A DNA stretch of 15,946 nt from Candidatus Methylomirabilota bacterium (GTDB taxonomy: Bacteria; Methylomirabilota; Methylomirabilia; Rokubacteriales; CSP1-6): NCBI GenBank assembly GCA_046726415.1, contig JBKPAK010000092.1:1-15946 (forward strand). Direction: 5' to 3'. Below the pieces are notes generated by a model. The model worked only from the letters and a program-made list of their open reading frames with translations. It had not been told where the DNA came from and did not search any database. How positions within the stretch are numbered: the stretch's first letter is position 1; each line of letters starts with the position of its first letter. Shown piece after piece: positions 9,467 through 15,946 of the stretch. The position numbers and the translations under genes were made by a program.

Positions 9467-9525
9467 CCTGATCGCATGCGATTCTTCCCGCGCTGGTAGC
9501 CTGATCGCATGCGATTCTTGCCGCG
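9461..9525 (+). repeat. 33-bp tandem duplication containing an extended -10 box and ATG
   Basis: TGGTAGCCTGATCGCATGCGATTCTT is identical at 9461-9486 and 9494-9519; each copy is followed by one variable base and CCGCG. Confidence 0.9.
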
Positions 9526-10636
9526 ACGCCGTCCGACGCTGATCCCGCCGGCGTCCGACGATCTGCTCGTCATCGAAGAGATTCTCCGCCGCCGCGTGGA
9601 AGAGGTCTTCGAGGTGCACCAGCGGTACTTCCAGGGGAGAGCCTTCGTCTTCACCGGCGAGCTCAAGGCTCGCCCCGGCCACGCCCTCGACGTCCTGCTC
9701 GATCGCTTTCGCCCGCTCGGCTACACACCCGTGCTCCGTCACCAGGGAGCGGGCGCTGTGCTGGAGGCGTGGCCGCTGCGCGAGTCGGTTCCGCGCAGGC
9801 GGGTGGGTGTGAACGTGCTGCTCTTCGCCCTCACGTGTCTCACCACGCTCATGGCGGGCTCGGGCGCGTTCCTGAGCTTCGATCCGCTCGCGCATCCGTG
9901 GCGGATCCTGACCGGGGTGCCCTTTGCCTTCACCCTGCTGGCCATCCTCGGCACTCACGAGTTTGGCCACTACTTCACCGCGCGTTACCACGGCGCCGCC
10001 GTGTCCCTGCCGTACTTCATCCCTGCGCCTCCACCCTTTCTCTTCGGCACACTGGGCGCCATCATCCGAATGGGTTCCGCCGTGCGCGATCGCAACGCCC
10101 TCTTCGACATCGCCGTGGCTGGACCCTTGGCGGGGTTGGCGGTGGCCATCCCGGCTCTGCTGCTCGGTCTGGCATGGTCAGTCGTGGCGGTGGTTCCCGC
10201 GGGCGGCCACATCGTCTTCGGTGATTCGATGCTGATGCGCTTTCTCGTCTACCTCACCTTCGGCCGGATCCCGGGAGGGATGGACGTCTTCGTCCATCCC
10301 GTCGCGCTGGCCGGGTGGGTCGGCCTGTTCGTGACCGCACTGAATCTCTTTCCGGTGGGGCAGCTCGACGGTGGACGTATTGCGTACGCGCTCTTCGGCC
10401 GCTACCACCGCATGGTCGGTTATCTCACCGTCGCCGGGCTGGTGGCGCTGGGAGCAGTCACGTCGTCGCCGAACTGGCTCGTGTGGGCGGCCCTCGTGTT
10501 CTTCTTCGTCGGCGTCCGCCACAGCCCCCCGCTCGACGACGTCACTCCGCTAACACGAGGCCGACGCCTCCTCGGCTACCTCTGCCTGATACTCCTGGTT
10601 CTCCTCATCCCCCCGGTCCCCATCGAACTCAGCTGA
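9509..10636 (+). CDS. Site-2 protease family (M50) intramembrane zinc metalloprotease
   Basis: HEFGH within a TM segment, IAVAGPLAG, NLFPVGQLDGG; multiple TM helices and a soluble N-terminal extension. Confidence 0.93.
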   Translation: MRFLPRRRPTLIPPASDDLLVIEEILRRRVEEVFEVHQRYFQGRAFVFTGELKARPGHALDVLLDRFRPLGYTPVLRHQGAGAVLEAWPLRESVPRRRVGVNVLLFALTCLTTLMAGSGAFLSFDPLAHPWRILTGVPFAFTLLAILGTHEFGHYFTARYHGAAVSLPYFIPAPPPFLFGTLGAIIRMGSAVRDRNALFDIAVAGPLAGLAVAIPALLLGLAWSVVAVVPAGGHIVFGDSMLMRFLVYLTFGRIPGGMDVFVHPVALAGWVGLFVTALNLFPVGQLDGGRIAYALFGRYHRMVGYLTVAGLVALGAVTSSPNWLVWAALVFFFVGVRHSPPLDDVTPLTRGRRLLGYLCLILLVLLIPPVPIELS

Positions 10637-10708: not shown

Positions 10709-12556
10709 TCAGCCGAGCGCGTCGAGAACTTCAGCGATCACTTCGAACCGCCCAAACGACGGCATCAGATATACCCCCGGAAAGCGAGTGCGAATCGCGT
10801 GGACGAGTTGCTGCCCCATCTCGATTCCCACGCGGAGCGCGTGATCCCCGGCTTCGCGCAAGCGCGCGCGTACCGCATCCGGGATGGTAATACCAGGAAC
10901 CTCGTTGTGCAGGAACTCGGCGTGGCGCGAGCTGTGCAGGGGGAGCACGCCTACCACGAGCGGGACGGGCAGGTCCCCGCAGCGCTGGAGGAAGCGATCG
11001 AACTGCTCGAGATCGTAGACCGGCTGGGTCTGAAGCCAGCGAGCGCCCGCTTCGATCTTTCGGTGGGTTCGCTCGATCTCGCGCTCGATATCCGCGGCCG
11101 AGGGATTCAGGGTCGCGCCCACGCAGAAGGACGTCGAGGTGCCGATGCTGTTGCCGGTGGCGTCGAGGCCTTCGTTGAGACGCCGGATGATCTCCAGCAG
11201 ACCGATCGCATCGACGTCGAACACGGCGGTGGCGTTCGCGTAGTCACCGGGTCGGGGCGGATCTCCAGTCATGGCCAGGATGTTGCGGATGTCGAGGGCC
11301 TGGGCCGCGAGCAATTCGCCCTGGATGCTCATGAGGTTGCGGTCGCGGCAGGTGAAGTGCATCGAGACATCGAGCCCGGTGGCCTCTCGAATGAGGAGAG
11401 CCGTTGGCAGCACCGCCATGCGGACGCGACCGAGCGAGCCGTCGTTGATGTCGACGATCTCCACGCCCCGCTCCTTGAGGAGCTTGGCGCCCTGTACGAG
11501 CTTCTCTACCGTATGGCCACGCGGCGGGTCCAGCTCCACGGTCACCACGAAGTCTCCCGCCTCCAGCTTGCGCTGGAGCGCCGTGGGCTCCTCCGCTACG
11601 AGCCCCGTGTCTGAGGCGAATCCGGGCTCGCGGGTCACCGCGCGGCGCGGGCGCGGTGGGCGGCGCGGCGTGGCCAACCGGCGATCCACGACCTGTCGCA
11701 TGGCCGCGATGTGCGCCGGCGTTGTGCCACAGCAGCCGCCCACGAGGGTGGCGCCGGCGTCGAGCATGCGGCCCGCGTAGTCGGCCATGTAGGTCGGGGA
11801 TGAGATGTAAATCAGGCGCTGGCCGACCTGGGAGGGAAGGCCGGCATTGGGCTGGATGGTCAGGGGGATGCCCCCGGCCTCGGGCAGCATTCCCTCGAGA
11901 ACTTCGTGGAGGATGCTTGAACCGACCGAACAGTTTGCCCCCATGGCCTGGACGCCGAGATCGCGCAGCGCGTGCGCGACTTCGGCCGGGGTCCGGCCCA
12001 TGAAGGTCAGACACTCCTCGGTGAAGGTCATCTGGGCCACGACGGGCAGGTCAGTCACCGCGCGGACCGCCTCCACGGAGAGGGCGATCTCGGCGAGATC
12101 CGAAAATGTCTCGACGATGAGGGCATCGACCCCGCCCTCGACGAGGGCCTCGGCCTGCTCCCGGAATGCGGCCCGGGCTTCATCGGACGTCACCGCGCCC
12201 AGGGGCGCCAGATACCGTCCCAGGGGGCCGATCGAGCCGAGGACGAACACGTCGCGCCCGCTGCTCTCGCGGGCATCGCGGGCAAGCCGGGCCCCCTGGA
12301 TGTTGATGCGTCGGACGTCATCGTCGAAGCCGAACGCGGCCAGCTTGAAGCGATTGGCGCCGAAGGTATTTGTTTCGATGGCGTCGGCCCCGACGGCGAT
12401 GTACTCCGTGTGGACGGACTGCACCAGGCGGGGCTGGTTGATGTTGAGGGCATCGAAGCAGGGATCGAGCTCGACGCCGCGGGCATAGAGGAACGATCCC
12501 ATTCCACCATCGCAGAGCAGAGGTCCCTCGCTCAGGCGCCGGGTCAATGCGTGCAT
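10709..12556 (-). CDS. yitJ: Bifunctional homocysteine S-methyltransferase / 5,10-methylenetetrahydrofolate reductase (YitJ-like)
   Basis: HMT domain: DGGMGS, ETNTFGAN, GSIGP, GANCS, PNAGLP, GGCCGT. MTHFR domain: VELDPP, HFTCRDRN, TGDPP, TQPVYD, HNEVPGI. Confidence 0.93.
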   Translation of the reverse strand: MHALTRRLSEGPLLCDGGMGSFLYARGVELDPCFDALNINQPRLVQSVHTEYIAVGADAIETNTFGANRFKLAAFGFDDDVRRINIQGARLARDARESSGRDVFVLGSIGPLGRYLAPLGAVTSDEARAAFREQAEALVEGGVDALIVETFSDLAEIALSVEAVRAVTDLPVVAQMTFTEECLTFMGRTPAEVAHALRDLGVQAMGANCSVGSSILHEVLEGMLPEAGGIPLTIQPNAGLPSQVGQRLIYISSPTYMADYAGRMLDAGATLVGGCCGTTPAHIAAMRQVVDRRLATPRRPPRPRRAVTREPGFASDTGLVAEEPTALQRKLEAGDFVVTVELDPPRGHTVEKLVQGAKLLKERGVEIVDINDGSLGRVRMAVLPTALLIREATGLDVSMHFTCRDRNLMSIQGELLAAQALDIRNILAMTGDPPRPGDYANATAVFDVDAIGLLEIIRRLNEGLDATGNSIGTSTSFCVGATLNPSAADIEREIERTHRKIEAGARWLQTQPVYDLEQFDRFLQRCGDLPVPLVVGVLPLHSSRHAEFLHNEVPGITIPDAVRARLREAGDHALRVGIEMGQQLVHAIRTRFPGVYLMPSFGRFEVIAEVLDALG

Positions 12557-12591: not shown

Positions 12592-12680
12592 GCGAGGAAG
12601 CGATGACACGGGTGAGCGCCCCGCGAGGACGCGCTTGACACGGGAGGGCTGGCGCCGCGAGGAAGCGCTTGACATGGGTG
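12592..12680 (+). repeat. Three imperfect ~24-nt direct repeats (consensus GCGAGGAAGCGCTTGACACGGGTG)
   Basis: Copies at 12592-12614, 12623-12646 and 12657-12680 (periods 31 and 34); copies 2 and 3 contain TTGACA. Confidence 0.8.
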
Positions 12681-12698
12681 GCCAGCCCCGCCTAGGTT
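12669..12698 (+). promoter_or_regulatory. Putative sigma70 promoter for the peptidase/ATP-grasp operon
   Basis: TTGACA (12669-12674), 18 nt, TAGGTT (12693-12698), 10 nt before ATG 12709. Confidence 0.5.
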
Positions 12699-12708
12699 CG
12701 GCCGAGCT

Positions 12709-13950
12709 ATGCCGCGCACGGCCCAGCTATACCCGCAGGGAGCGGGCATCCGGTTCCTCGTCTTTCCTCAAGCGCGAACCGTCCGCGGGTTCCGGGCTCC
12801 CGAGGTGCTCACCATCGATCAGTCGCACGGCGTGATCCGGCCGGGCCCGCAGGACGACAGCATCTACGTGGTCGACGCCGAGGACAAAGTGCCATACCGC
12901 GATGACTCCTCAGGGGAGTACCGCGCCTATCCCCCGTACCGCGGGATCGTCCGCGCGCCCGTGCGGCCAGGGCCGGACGGACACTTCGATCATCTTCGCC
13001 CCGGCACTCGGGAGTTTTCCGCGGCCGCCCTGTTTGCCACGGTTCGCTACGTCCGCGCGGTGTGGGAGCATCACCTCGGGGGGCAGCTCCCCTGGTGGTT
13101 TCGCTACACCTACCCGCGGCTGGAACTGATTCCCCGCGTCGCTTCGCAGGTCGGCTGGTCTGGCCTTGGCTTCATCGAGTGCGGCTTTCCCCTGGTTCGG
13201 GGCCGCCCGGATCGGCGCGATCCGTACGCCGATAACTTCGACATCGTGGCCCACGAGACCGGGCACATCATTCTCAAAACGCTCATCGGAGATCCGTTCT
13301 CTCGTCGCCGGCCCTTCGAGTACCGCGCGCACGAGGAGGCGGGCGCCGACCTCACGGCCATGCTGACCTCGCTCTACTTCGACTCCGTGGTCGACCAGCT
13401 GCTCGCCCGCACGCGGGGCAATCTCTTCGCCCCGAGCACGCTCTCCCGAATGGGCGAGCTGCGCATTCCGCGGTCACCGACCGAACCGGCCGTGCGCTCG
13501 CTCCGCAACCGGGAGACGCTCACCAGCGCCCGGCGCACCATGGAGCGCGAAGGCCGTGCGCCGCATCACTACGCGGTGCCATTTGCCGGGGCGGTCTTCG
13601 ATCTGCTGGTGGAGCTCTACGAGCGGAATCTGACGCGCCGATCGCTCATCCCTTCGGCGCTCGGCCGGCGCTCCCGCAACGCGCGCGGAATCGAGCCCCA
13701 TTCCATTACCCGAGAATTCGCCCGGCACTACCAGCGCGCAGAGGCGGGCTTTAAGGACGCGCTGCTCGACGCCCGAGACACGCTGGGCCGGCTGCTCGCT
13801 CGCGCCTGGGACGCCACGTCGCCGCGCGGCTTGACGTTCGGTCGGGTCGTGGCCAACCTCATCGCCGTCGATCGCCAGCTCTACGGCGGCGCCCACACGG
13901 CGCTCATCCGCCGCCTATTCCGCGCCCGAGAGATCGTTCCGCCGCGATGA
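12709..13950 (+). CDS. Uncharacterised gluzincin-type zinc metallopeptidase (M4/M36-like), no signal peptide
   Basis: DIVAHETGH (HExxH, compare thermolysin DVVAHELTH) with downstream HEEAGAD (ExxxD third ligand); high-GC3 codon usage. Confidence 0.75.
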   Translation: MPRTAQLYPQGAGIRFLVFPQARTVRGFRAPEVLTIDQSHGVIRPGPQDDSIYVVDAEDKVPYRDDSSGEYRAYPPYRGIVRAPVRPGPDGHFDHLRPGTREFSAAALFATVRYVRAVWEHHLGGQLPWWFRYTYPRLELIPRVASQVGWSGLGFIECGFPLVRGRPDRRDPYADNFDIVAHETGHIILKTLIGDPFSRRRPFEYRAHEEAGADLTAMLTSLYFDSVVDQLLARTRGNLFAPSTLSRMGELRIPRSPTEPAVRSLRNRETLTSARRTMEREGRAPHHYAVPFAGAVFDLLVELYERNLTRRSLIPSALGRRSRNARGIEPHSITREFARHYQRAEAGFKDALLDARDTLGRLLARAWDATSPRGLTFGRVVANLIAVDRQLYGGAHTALIRRLFRAREIVPPR

Positions 13951-14012
13951 GGACCTCGCGAGCCGCAACACGGAGGGGGACTGGCGTGTCGGCGGGCGAG
14001 GCGAGGCCATGA
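13947..14012 (+). CDS. Possible 21-aa bridging small ORF (MRTSRAATRRGTGVSAGEARP)
   Basis: ATGA overlap with the peptidase stop and a second ATGA overlap with the ATP-grasp start. Confidence 0.3.
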   Translation: MRTSRAATRRGTGVSAGEARP

Positions 14013-15097
14013 CCATCGCGAAGCCCGTGTGCCTCCTCGTGCTGGGAGCGGGCACTGGCCCGGCCAACAACCTCGTGCGCAGCCTGCGCGCCAGGGAGCA
14101 CGGCTGGACGATCCTCGGCGCCCACTGCGATCGCTTCACCCTTACGCGCTCGGCGGCCGAAGACCAAAGCTTCTTGATCCCGTCTGTCGATCACCCCGCC
14201 TTCGTCAGGGTCCTTCGTCGTCTCGTGGCTCGCGAAGGCGTGGATCTCCTCGTCCCGACCTCGGATGCCGAGGTCGCCCGGCTGGTGTCGTCTCGGCGTG
14301 GCTGGCGGTGCCGGCTCTTCCTGCCCAGCGCCAATGCGGTCGCCCTGTGCCAGGACAAGTACGCGCTGGCCCGCCATCTCGAGGCGCACGGGGTGCCGGT
14401 GCCGCGCACGCTCGCGCTGCCCGAAATCCATGCGGTGAAGAGTGCCTTTCGCGAGCTCGGTCGGCCCGCCCGGGCATGGTGCCGTATCAGACAGGGGACC
14501 AATGCGTCCGGCGCCGCCCCGGTGGCGACGGCGGAGCAGGCGCAGAGCTGGATCGGGTACTGGGCAACCATGCGCGGAGTTCCGGCGTCGGCGTTCACGC
14601 TCTCGGAGTATCTGCCCGGCCGTGACTTTGCCTGTCAGAGCCTCTGGTGCCGGGGAGCGCTCGTGCTCGTGAAGGCCTTCGAGCGCCTGGCCTACGTCAC
14701 CGTGGGCAGCAATCCGAGCGGGATGTCCTCCGCCGCGGCCCTCGCCAGAACGGTGGCCGAGCCTCGAGTGGTGGAGGTGGCCGCCGCCGCTATCCGCGCC
14801 GTCGATGCCCGCGCCTCGGGGGTCTTCGGCGTGGACCTCAAGGAGAACGTCCGCGGTGAGCCCTGTGTCACCGAGATCAATGCCGGCAGGTTCCTGGCCG
14901 GCACGAACCTCCTCGATCTCACGGGAGAACACAACATGGCGGCAATGTATGTGAGGCTCGGGCTGGGGGAGCCAATCGCCCTGCGCGGGGTGTACGAGGC
15001 CGCCGAAGACTACTACATGGTGAGAAGCGTGGACGAGCTGCCACGCGTTGTCCACGCCGAGGGGCTGTTCCGGGGCATTCAGGATGCGCGGACGTAA
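14009..15097 (+). CDS. ATP-grasp domain ligase (carbamoyl-phosphate-synthase-like pre-ATP-grasp N-domain)
   Basis: N-terminal LVLGAG strand, VDLLVPTSD.E, CQDKY, GVPVPRT, SEYLPG and GVFGVDLKE...VTEINAGRF motifs. Confidence 0.85.
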   Translation: MTIAKPVCLLVLGAGTGPANNLVRSLRAREHGWTILGAHCDRFTLTRSAAEDQSFLIPSVDHPAFVRVLRRLVAREGVDLLVPTSDAEVARLVSSRRGWRCRLFLPSANAVALCQDKYALARHLEAHGVPVPRTLALPEIHAVKSAFRELGRPARAWCRIRQGTNASGAAPVATAEQAQSWIGYWATMRGVPASAFTLSEYLPGRDFACQSLWCRGALVLVKAFERLAYVTVGSNPSGMSSAAALARTVAEPRVVEVAAAAIRAVDARASGVFGVDLKENVRGEPCVTEINAGRFLAGTNLLDLTGEHNMAAMYVRLGLGEPIALRGVYEAAEDYYMVRSVDELPRVVHAEGLFRGIQDART

Positions 15098-15141
15098 ACG
15101 GAGATCCTTCGTGAAGCCGAAGACGAGAGGGAGGAAGAGTC

Positions 15142-15309
15142 ATGCCAAGCGAGCCCGTCCAGAAGGGAAAGACGCGCAAGGTCATCATCGAGATCAAGGG
15201 GCCGGTGTCGAAGGAGCAGCTGGTCGAGTTCCACAAGGAGCTCAGGGCGCTGGCGCGGACGGTCCGGGGAACGGTGGTCGCGAAGCGTCGGCCCAAGAAG
15301 AGCTCCTAG
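15142..15309 (+). CDS. Small basic hypothetical protein, 55 aa (MPSEPVQKGKTRKVIIEIKGPVSKEQLVEFHKELRALARTVRGTVVAKRRPKKSS)
   Basis: Strong RBS GAGGGAGGA at about 15127-15135 and nearly all codons end in G/C. Below the ORF-track length cutoff. Confidence 0.75.
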   Translation: MPSEPVQKGKTRKVIIEIKGPVSKEQLVEFHKELRALARTVRGTVVAKRRPKKSS

Positions 15310-15542
15310 CGCGGAGGGGCGGGAGCCACGAGGACCTCTCGATCATCGAGATCACTGCGGATCTCGACGCCTACGCCCTGGAAACGCTGCGACTGGACAT
15401 CCGGCGCTTGGCCGCGCGGCATGGCATCGGGCTCGAACGCGTGGCGGATATCGAAGGTGGCGGCGGATCCAGCCCCCCGGGAAACCCAGCGCGCGACGCC
15501 CGCGGCGCGGCCCAGGCCTTGATCTTGTTGAGGACGCCCTGA
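15309..15542 (+). CDS. Small hypothetical protein similar to the upstream 55-aa ORF; start unresolved (possible remnant)
   Basis: Segment IIEITADLDAYALETLRLDIRRLAARHG aligns ungapped with IIEIKGPVSKEQLVEFHKELRALARTVR; no ATG/GTG/TTG nearby in frame. Confidence 0.45.
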   Translation, partial: ARRGGSHEDLSIIEITADLDAYALETLRLDIRRLAARHGIGLERVADIEGGGGSSPPGNPARDARGAAQALILLRTP

Positions 15543-15552
15543 GCCGGGTTCC

Positions 15553-15946
15553 TCAATCTGACGTCGGCTGATCCGACTGGCACTGCGCGAGCCAGAAGCC
15601 CATCCCCATGGCGGCATAGAGTCTTGTCGCTTCCGCCCGGTGATGCGCGGCGTCCCCGGCGCGACCCCAGCGACGGTAGAGGCGGGCGAGACCGAGGTGA
15701 CAGTGGGCGACGAGCGGCCGCATGCCGAGCCTGTGCGCATGGGCCCGAGCGTCGTGAAAGCGGGCCTCGGCGTCAGCCACGGACACCGGTCGGGCCCGGG
15801 CCGCTACCTCGGCCAGTAGGCGCAGCACCCAGGCCTCGTGACCGCGCTCCCGGTGCTCGCGGGCGAGCTCGAGCGCGCGCTGAGCCCGCTCGTGGGCCGC
15901 CGCCCGGTCCCCGGCCATCAAGCTCGCGTAGCCCCACGACGCCACG
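15553..15946 (-). CDS. C-terminal TPR region of a large gene, likely a STAND/AAA ATPase-adenylate cyclase-type regulator; partial
   Basis: ERAQRALELARE..ERGHEAWVLRLLAE...LGMRPLVAHCHLGLARLYRR...AMGMGFWL resembles the TPR tails of such proteins; the gene start lies beyond the window. Confidence 0.7.
   Translation of the reverse strand, partial: VASWGYASLMAGDRAAAHERAQRALELAREHRERGHEAWVLRLLAEVAARARPVSVADAEARFHDARAHAHRLGMRPLVAHCHLGLARLYRRWGRAGDAAHHRAEATRLYAAMGMGFWLAQCQSDQPTSD

Follow-up and report, generated by a model that had tools for sequence, protein, structure and literature searches.

What does an ATP-grasp ligase act on when its gene follows that of a zinc metallopeptidase, is itself followed by the genes of two very small proteins, and has no transporter gene for company? 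The question is raised by positions 12709-15542 (+ strand) of a 15,946-nucleotide contig of Candidatus Methylomirabilota bacterium (GenBank assembly GCA_046726415.1, contig JBKPAK010000092.1). The window analysed here is this entire 15.9-kb contig, part of a 7.6-Mb genome of about 68% G+C, and in homologue searches its closest relatives carry the labels Rokubacteria or Methylomirabilota. An earlier, sequence-only reading had described in this region a peptidase, a 21-codon open reading frame (ORF), an ATP-grasp ligase, a basic 55-residue ORF behind a strong ribosome-binding site and a second, related mini-domain, and had proposed that together they form a system of peptide ligation and processing. 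All five elements are present in the order described. We call the 55-residue ORF A and the second mini-domain B, and refer to related loci by labels such as L002, L003 and L171 and to soil-metagenome runs or contigs as X1, X2 and X5. Here we show that the core unit comprises the ligase, A and B, together with a convergent gene for a large regulator that combines sigma-54-activator, STAND and TPR modules.

A cassette of a ligase and two mini-proteins

Two sets of loci were compared, 80 from genomes, collected by searching with the peptidase, and 80 from metagenomes, collected by searching with the ligase; 90 loci including the window carry the ligase. Of these, 76 have at least 600 nucleotides (nt) of downstream sequence: 70 of them contain B, 52 contain A and 46 contain both, and after a second round of profile searching all 76 had A and/or B. 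At one locus (L091), where the A profile was silent, a diverged small basic ORF could be recognised by eye at the position of A. Where the peptidase occurs without the ligase, in 71 loci, neither A nor B was found. The peptidase gene lies upstream of the ligase gene in 32 of the 55 loci with room for it, and in the window the two are translationally coupled. The prediction that the components travel together is thus strongly borne out for the ligase, A and B, and only partly for the peptidase: the first three form a real, conserved cassette, to which the peptidase is an optional addition.

The ligase is present in 74 of 201 sampled genomes of the phylum (42 of the 104 of high quality, and 32 of 61 genera), a tally that includes two genomes flagged as unpublished, G058 and G101, and a metagenome scan with the ligase confirmed at least 552 loci among 599 candidate stretches. 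In the genome of the window the ligase occurs a second time, as a copy of 48% identity that is divided between two contig ends (G000:C132:10368-11099 and G000:C337:1-1977); behind it come an A-like ORF that is not basic, a gene for B and a TPR gene in convergent orientation. The peptidase is single-copy, no second one being found in that genome. No further tailoring, immunity or transporter gene was seen in any examined locus, so that the absence of a transporter noted from the sequence extends from the window to its relatives, and no biosynthetic or cargo-transforming enzyme is conserved near the cassette in these loci. The PADLOC anti-phage models matched none of the peptidase, the ligase, A or B (0 families). 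A literature search at the level of titles and abstract openings found no published description of the ligase-A-B cassette.

Mini-protein A (15142-15309, + strand) is preceded by GGAGG at 15130-15134, 7 nt upstream of its start, and B (15339-15542, + strand) consists of a core, 15339-15455, and a variable tail. Comparison of the window with L002 and L003 gave ratios of nonsynonymous to synonymous substitution (dN/dS) of 0.21-0.28 for A and 0.19-0.23 for the core of B, against 0.88-1.05 for the alternative frame that overlaps A; both mini-proteins are under purifying selection, with dN/dS of about 0.2. In most loci they are separate ORFs, each with its own ATG, and they are kept where the ligases are only 50-58% identical to that of the window. 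The B profile found 484 clusters (E<=0.001) among 1.84 billion representatives, and the best 150 of these are all stand-alone proteins of 41-114 residues.

In both mini-proteins the conserved part is a folded core. That of A is strand-helix-strand by its sequence pattern, behind a conserved N-terminus beginning MP and ahead of a Lys/Arg-rich C-terminal tail, and the protein is very basic (median net charge +15 over 40 sequences). The core of B is acidic, and its AlphaFold2 model is likewise strand-helix-strand, with a predicted local distance difference test score (pLDDT) of 70.3 overall and 82-89 in the core. Foldseek found no match to this model at E<=0.001; rows resembling S6 and ACT domains, at E values of 0.1-0.5, were not counted as evidence. 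When the two profiles were aligned with hhalign, their strand-helix-strand cores matched over 33 columns with 91% probability (E 1.1e-6). Judged by these profiles A and B are paralogous, which bears out the relationship suspected from the sequence, and they constitute two new mini-protein families.

The tails of both vary in length and sequence, those of B being rich in Ser/Thr and Asp/Glu and those of A in Lys, and the alignments show no shared leader motif, in agreement with the earlier remark that a microviridin-type leader is missing. B sequences have neither paired cysteines of the zinc-ribbon kind nor an EDWGE-type end. A recurrent feature lies instead at the extreme C-terminus of B, where Ser-Ala or Ser-Gly ends 32 of the 150 representatives, against an expectation of 1.9 for tails of this composition and counts of 1-8 at other offsets; in the locus set 33 of 60 B copies end in this way. 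Prediction of an A+B complex gave a score of 0.43 (0.42, 0.43 and 0.45 in individual runs) against 0.01 for the best control, with contacts agreeing by at least 89% between runs and a partner pLDDT of at least 60. When the method was calibrated, 58 of 80 solved complexes came up to this mark, as did 2 of 110 mismatched pairs; at scores of up to 0.60 only 7 of the 80 solved complexes and both mismatches did, so that pairing of A with B receives weak support from the models.

The start of B is unusual. B lies in a frame that stays open between 15024 and 15542 and includes an ATG at 15084; in the window, L002 and L003 there is no ATG, GTG or TTG between the stop codon of A and the first strand of B. 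A candidate start in the window is the ATC at 15342, with GAGGA 7 nt upstream. At L083:2552, L125:4076 and L126:4746, which represent two lineages (L083, and L125 with L126), an ATC stands exactly where the orthologues have their ATG, behind a Shine-Dalgarno-like sequence, which suggests that this rare initiation codon has been used recurrently for B. L002 and L003 have no equivalent ATC ahead of the first strand. On the simplest reading B of the window may start at ATC 15342. Two other routes were considered and rejected: a long form of B, with an N-terminal extension encoded across A in a second frame, since the alternative frame is unconstrained, and a programmed -1 frameshift from A into B, since the 3' end of A has no conserved slippery heptamer. 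Directly after the stop codon of A, L002 (8535-8585) and L003 (5612-5660) have a G+C-rich inverted repeat able to form a hairpin, which a 24-nt deletion has removed from the window; it could serve attenuation, RNA stability or the control of translation.

The tail of B varies even within soil populations. One of them (X2) has a 1-nt deletion in a run of A at 15482, which shifts the C-terminal frame, and the same site reads A>G in X1 and X5; hand translation of the shifted frame gives a shorter, Arg/Pro-rich ending that resembles that of L002. At L003 (4313-5806) and in the protein P0131 the ligase frame continues into B with no stop codon between them, giving a 498-residue ligase-B fusion within which A is nested in another frame. 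The two fusions are distinct sequences, and P0131 comprises 8 member sequences on 3 contigs.

The ligase, the peptidase and their promoter

The ligase (362 residues; 14009-15097, + strand) was placed by the sequence-only reading among the ATP-grasp enzymes, closer to carbamoyl phosphate synthase (CPS) than to RimK; curated family models bear out the first of these statements. It passes the cut-off of Pfam ATP-grasp_3 (PF02655) narrowly, with 24.8 bits against 23.2 over residues 114-292, and falls short of that of PylC-like_N (25.9 bits against 27). In NCBIfam its best match is 'carbamoyl phosphate synthase-like', and all matches there are far under their cut-offs: the RimK model TIGR00768 scores 26 bits against 143.4 and covers residues 107-153 only, and the LysX/ArgX model TIGR02144 scores 28.1 bits against an equivalog cut-off of 275.6. 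The 16 NCBIfam families matched at E<=0.1 include no graspetide or microviridin maturase, in a library that should hold such models, and the enzyme falls within none of the curated small-molecule or polysaccharide families examined. Against the PDB the profile finds 2pn1, an uncharacterised CPS-like protein (7.6e-7), and then LysX (3vpd, 6.6e-5; 1uc8; 1uc9). The nearest characterised relatives are thus LysX entries, one of which was deposited under a ribosomal-protein-S6-modification (RimK-type) name. Homologues are plentiful (1547 at E<=0.001 among 8000 candidates scored), and in 19 aligned sequences E289, N291 and R294 (of TEINxGR), D276, K278 and E279 are invariant; we take these to be the residues that bind Mg and ATP. 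By sequence the ligase is a member of the ATP-grasp superfamily from a divergent lineage.

Between the peptidase and the ligase lies the 21-codon ORF (13947-14012, + strand), with ATGA overlaps at each end. Its existence and coupling were correctly described; its place as a component of the system does not stand, as it is missing in L002 and L003. There the ligase itself starts at the ATG of the 21-codon ORF, overlapping the stop codon of the peptidase, and a spacer of about 59 nt is absent; the window has this extra segment and a new ligase start, and the spacer is also present in X1 and X2. Since the ligase of L002 and L003 begins at that same ATG, the 21-codon ORF is, from this comparison, a window-specific remnant of the ancestral ligase start and at most a relay for translational coupling. 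The long open frames in the region were considered as peptidase-ligase fusions and rejected, the two genes being in different frames and the long frames being shadows of GC-rich coding sequence. X1 and X2 are independent soil-metagenome contigs that span 13900-15560 with 4-5 differences from the window, and because they reproduce this stretch its unusual junctions are not artefacts of assembly.

The peptidase (413 residues; 12709-13950, + strand) has an HETGH motif at residues 182-186, with E210 and D214 within HEEAGAD, and an alignment of 24 homologues shows no variation at H182, E183, H186, E210 and D214. No hydrophobic signal-like stretch and no propeptide are apparent at its N-terminus on inspection, and the enzyme is presumably cytoplasmic; the description of a signal-less HExxH/ExxxD metallopeptidase was therefore apt. 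It has no match in Pfam at E<=0.1, or in NCBIfam, including the Peptidase_M4, M4_C and M36 models. Of 8000 candidates scored, 302 were homologues at E<=0.001, and the 120 of them listed are 'hypothetical' wherever they are named; a scan of species-representative genomes confirmed 469 peptidase loci, spread over many phyla. The AlphaFold2 model (pLDDT 86.8) has the two-lobed fold of thermolysin, and Foldseek matched it to M36 and M4 enzymes (thermolysin, LasB, aureolysin) with E values from 3.6e-6 to 1e-3, TM scores of 0.53-0.70 on the target and sequence identities of 8-14%. The sequence profile found thermolysin and fungalysin in the PDB weakly, around the zinc site (E 0.004-0.07), and in the ESM Atlas only 'hypothetical protein' clusters were returned, with M4 and M36 families on 11-17% of the members of lower-ranked clusters. 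With M4 thermolysin and M36 fungalysin the peptidase shares HExxH, the downstream E...D third-ligand motif and the fold; it differs from them in its low identity and in lacking a Pfam match, a signal peptide and a propeptide. Sequence motif and structural model together place it as a thermolysin-fold gluzincin (clan MA(E)) outside the curated M4 and M36 families, and its family has no name and no Pfam model.

A promoter of its own had also been proposed for the unit. A promoter-like element at 12669-12698 (+ strand) has a -35 hexamer TTGACA (12669-12674), an 18-nt spacer and a -10 hexamer TAGGTT (12693-12698), and both hexamers are kept in three to four relatives (among them L002, L003 and L171) in which the flanks have diverged. 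This conservation favours the proposal; a consensus promoter scan of the window listed no promoter on the + strand, and TAGGTT matches the -10 consensus at 3 of 6 positions. The ATG of the peptidase follows the -10 hexamer by 10 nt, and the conserved arrangement suggests a nearly leaderless transcript of sigma-70 type.

Just upstream, the GCGCTTGACA motif has a second copy at 12631-12640, ahead of the promoter-like element, and two direct copies of a sequence of about 19 nt (CGCGAGGAnGCGCTTGACA) lie 34 nt apart at 12622-12674. The second of these copies contains the conserved -35 hexamer; the first is not kept in L002 or L003. Farther upstream are a gene for a 615-residue fused homocysteine S-methyltransferase/methylenetetrahydrofolate reductase protein (10709-12556, - strand) and one for an M50 site-2-protease-like membrane peptidase (9509-10636, + strand), neither of which is conserved beside the cassette in relatives.

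A shared regulator, and the peptidase beside YcaO and TfuA

The most conserved neighbour of the cassette is the large convergent regulator, encoded just after B in 59 of the 90 ligase loci; in all, the conserved neighbourhood runs to four or five genes. In the window its 3' end lies 10 bases past the stop codon of B on the opposite strand, and the contig end truncates it to its C-terminal 130 residues (15553-15945, - strand), which match TPR_MalT and TPR_12 and are 64% identical over 129 residues to the C-terminus of the L002 regulator. Where the gene is full-length (L003, L005, L011 and L016) it encodes in succession a Sigma54_activat AAA+ domain, a Fis-type HTH_8 domain, a STAND NTPase domain (AAA_16) and TPR repeats. 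In L002 it is split into two ORFs that match Sigma54_activat, AAA_16 and TPR, with no HTH_8 at E<=1e-5. Its domains identify the protein as a bacterial enhancer-binding protein fused to a STAND NTPase, and it is a candidate 'reader'. The genome of L011 has a canonical sigma-54 promoter (TGGCAC-N5-TTGC; L174:4046, - strand) immediately upstream of the gene for the regulator; it points away from the regulator, toward a gene of the ROS/MucR family, and does not occur in the other four genomes checked.

The same pairing of peptidase and STAND/TPR regulator recurs in a second genetic setting. The 80 peptidase loci fall into three groups. Nine are of the ATP-grasp type, 7 of them with a STAND/TPR gene and the other two on contigs that end within the ligase. 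Twenty have YcaO and/or TfuA and/or a repeat-tailed protein, and here a STAND/TPR gene is present in 14. The remaining 51, mostly from Actinoplanes, Bacillus/Paenibacillus and cyanobacteria, belong to neither type, and 3 of them have a STAND/TPR gene, matching only the sigma-54-type regulator query. Operons of the YcaO type have the order STAND(cyclase)-YcaO-TfuA-peptidase-X, in which X is a protein of 150-290 residues whose C-terminus consists of 4-10 tandem hexapeptides (SRMAMA, SRSDMT, SRGSAA, QSRAMM and similar), as in the proteobacterial loci L079:7254-7985, L072:7268-7921, L066:7311-8042 and L055:2277-3095. To judge from these repeats X looks like a multi-core precursor.

The two settings share a peptidase of one family, with 37-43% identity between the YcaO-type enzymes and that of the window, as well as regulators homologous in their AAA_16/TPR part and a modifying enzyme beside a substrate-like gene. 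They differ in the modifying enzyme, YcaO/TfuA instead of ATP-grasp, in the output domain of the regulator, a nucleotide cyclase as against a sigma-54 activator, and in the putative substrate, since homology of A or B to the hexapeptide-repeat precursors was tried and rejected (hhalign probability below 1%). The peptidase and STAND/TPR pair thus recurs with two ATP-dependent peptide-modifying enzymes, each encoded beside a candidate substrate gene, and of the indirect arguments that A and B are substrates this recurrence is the strongest. The convergent regulator, the parallel YcaO/TfuA version and the exclusion of the 21-codon ORF are additions to what the sequence-only reading had contained.

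A tentative account of the cassette and its alternatives

We propose, tentatively and at somewhat short of an even chance, that the ligase modifies the mini-proteins, probably at the tail of B, that the peptidase trims the product, and that the TPR regulator reads it, the whole forming an intracellular circuit. According to this proposal, strongly basic A (about +15) and B, with its acidic core and a flexible tail that often ends in Ser-Ala or Ser-Gly, would pair with each other. The ATP-grasp enzyme would use ATP to form an acyl-phosphate on a carboxylate of a mini-protein, and would then attach an amine or amino acid to the activated carboxylate, as RimK does on S6 and LysX on LysW. The likeliest site would be the C-terminal tail of B, because LysX and RimK both ligate onto the C-terminal tail of a small protein and because the S-A/S-G motif is terminal. 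The peptidase would trim or remove the tail or its modification, and the TPR sensor of the STAND regulator would convert the state of the tail into sigma-54-dependent transcription without any step outside the cell.

A close precedent is RimK, which adds Glu residues to the C-terminus of ribosomal protein S6. Like that system, the cassette joins an ATP-grasp ligase with a small alpha+beta protein that bears a flexible C-terminal tail, inside the cell and with no transporter, and S6 is among the top, non-significant Foldseek neighbours of the B model. The differences are that the ligase is far from the RimK model (26 bits against 143.4), that B is a 45-residue strand-helix-strand unit and not S6, and that the cassette adds to B a basic paralogue, A, together with a peptidase that is optional and a STAND/TPR regulator of its own. 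That ATP-grasp enzymes modify small proteins made by ribosomes is known in kind; what is new is the families of the putative substrates, and what is unusual is their regulatory setting.

A number of observations weigh against the proposed circuit. It reaches beyond the gene content, conservation, paralogy, purifying selection, folds and domain architectures that we observe, to modification, cleavage, binding, a choice of substrate and a reader's role that we infer. The likeness of the ligase to LysX and RimK is weak (E 6.6e-5; 28 and 26 bits against 276 and 143), and its best PDB match is the uncharacterised CPS-like protein. In 23 of the 55 ligase loci unrelated housekeeping genes (an oxidoreductase, a superoxide dismutase, a helicase, DinB, a beta-lactamase-like gene) stand upstream and the peptidase is missing, so that it is not required; conversely, in 51 of its own 80 loci it stands alone, without this ligase or YcaO/TfuA close by. 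Neither the operon nor the set of 90 loci shows a conserved sigma-54 promoter, and 11 of the 90 have an upstream region with a weak match, at 9 or more of 12 positions; the promoter of the operon is sigma-70-like, and no target gene is conserved beyond the regulator, five genomes having five different neighbours there. The Ser-Ala/Ser-Gly end is missing in 118 of the 150 B representatives and in B of the window, the tail of which carries a frameshifting indel polymorphism, and B of the window's clade may be translated in some unusual way or not at all. Finally, the extreme basicity of A would equally fit a nucleic-acid binder.

This last point leads to the alternative that survives best, unlikely in our judgement and yet to be taken seriously, in which the ligase makes a small molecule, such as a dipeptide or an amide, that serves as the ligand of the STAND/TPR protein; A and B would then be co-transcribed partners that regulate or bind nucleic acids, for example a basic/acidic pair of inhibitor and antagonist. 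The charge of A, near +15, would suit such a role, as would the weak predicted support for its pairing with B, and the best ligase matches, to 'CPS-like' and PylC-like N-domain models, are to families that include small-molecule ligases. However, the near-universal linkage of ligase, A and B and the natural ligase-B fusion point to physical cooperation, and no other biosynthetic gene is conserved nearby.

We think it rather improbable that the cassette is a classical pathway for a peptide made by ribosomes and then modified post-translationally (RiPP), with the tail of A or B macrocyclised through a graspetide-like ester or lactam and the peptidase removing a structured leader to free a small peptide. 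Such a pathway would be in keeping with the presence of the same peptidase family beside YcaO/TfuA and multi-core, repeat-tailed precursors, and with tails that are Ser/Thr- and Asp/Glu-rich in B and Lys-rich in A. PMC8939145 describes ATP-grasp branches that occur with peptidases, TPR proteins, adenylate cyclases and YcaO/TfuA and that there lack a recognised precursor; peptidase-associated lineages of this sort lend the RiPP reading some further weight, and the microviridin-type graspetides resemble the cassette in combining an ATP-grasp enzyme with adjacent, ribosomally made small substrates and, in the same source, with a peptidase. Several features of the cassette speak against it: no locus has a transporter, a GNAT enzyme, an immunity gene or a further tailoring gene, the peptidase is dispensable in the 23 loci noted above, and no graspetide maturase appears among the NCBIfam families that the ligase matches. 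Moreover, what is conserved in A and B is the core of a folded mini-protein and not a short core peptide, with no leader/core architecture and with tails that vary.

A less probable alternative still is a carrier system of the LysW type, in which the ligase would load the C-terminus of B with a cargo that is transformed and then released by the metallopeptidase. LysW has a zinc ribbon and an acidic EDWGE-type end, and its pathway includes LysK, a metallopeptidase of the M20 family. The parallel draws on LysX as the closest characterised sequence in the PDB, on a B protein of about LysW size (some 55 residues) with acidic residues in its tail, and on the presence of a metallopeptidase. Yet the profile similarity to LysX is weak (28 bits against 275.6), B has neither the zinc ribbon nor the characteristic end, the peptidase is optional and has a thermolysin fold and not that of M20, and the loci conserve no enzymes that could transform a cargo.

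That the small ORFs arose by chance in GC-rich DNA or are pseudogenes in decay, leaving only the peptidase and the ligase as real genes, is scarcely credible for the family: long alternative frames are indeed common here (a 1020-residue frame is open across the peptidase in the L002 genome), and B of the window lacks a canonical start and has an indel-polymorphic tail, but A and B have dN/dS near 0.2 where the overlapping frame has about 1, persist beside ligases of 50-58% identity, mostly with an ATG of their own, and the B profile alone gathers 484 clusters.

Returning to modification of the tail of B as the preferred account, a bolder version of it, which we offer as a long shot, is a bacterial 'tail code': the tail of B, with basic A as its partner, would be written by the ligase, erased by the peptidase and read by the TPR repeats of the STAND/sigma-54 activator, a post-translational signalling circuit of three parts, with the writer exchangeable for YcaO/TfuA thioamidation and the output, in other phyla, for cyclic-nucleotide synthesis. 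In eukaryotes the tails of tubulin carry such a code, in a cycle of tyrosine ligase and carboxypeptidase. The resemblance is one of concept, an ATP-grasp-fold writer of tails, a metallopeptidase eraser and readers of the tail, and is pure analogy.

If the preferred account is true, the cassette would represent a new class of intracellular protein-tail modification in bacteria, and would bring with it two previously unrecognised mini-protein families and an unnamed family of cytoplasmic thermolysin-fold peptidases. The cassette is common in an abundant soil phylum (74 of 201 genomes, and at least 552 metagenome loci), and with its four genes it is small enough for easy reconstitution in E. coli. 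The shared peptidase and STAND/TPR regulator tie it to YcaO/TfuA loci with repeat precursors in several other phyla, and this linkage raises the question of what the ligands of STAND/TPR proteins are, and whether short, modified peptide tails can serve as such ligands.

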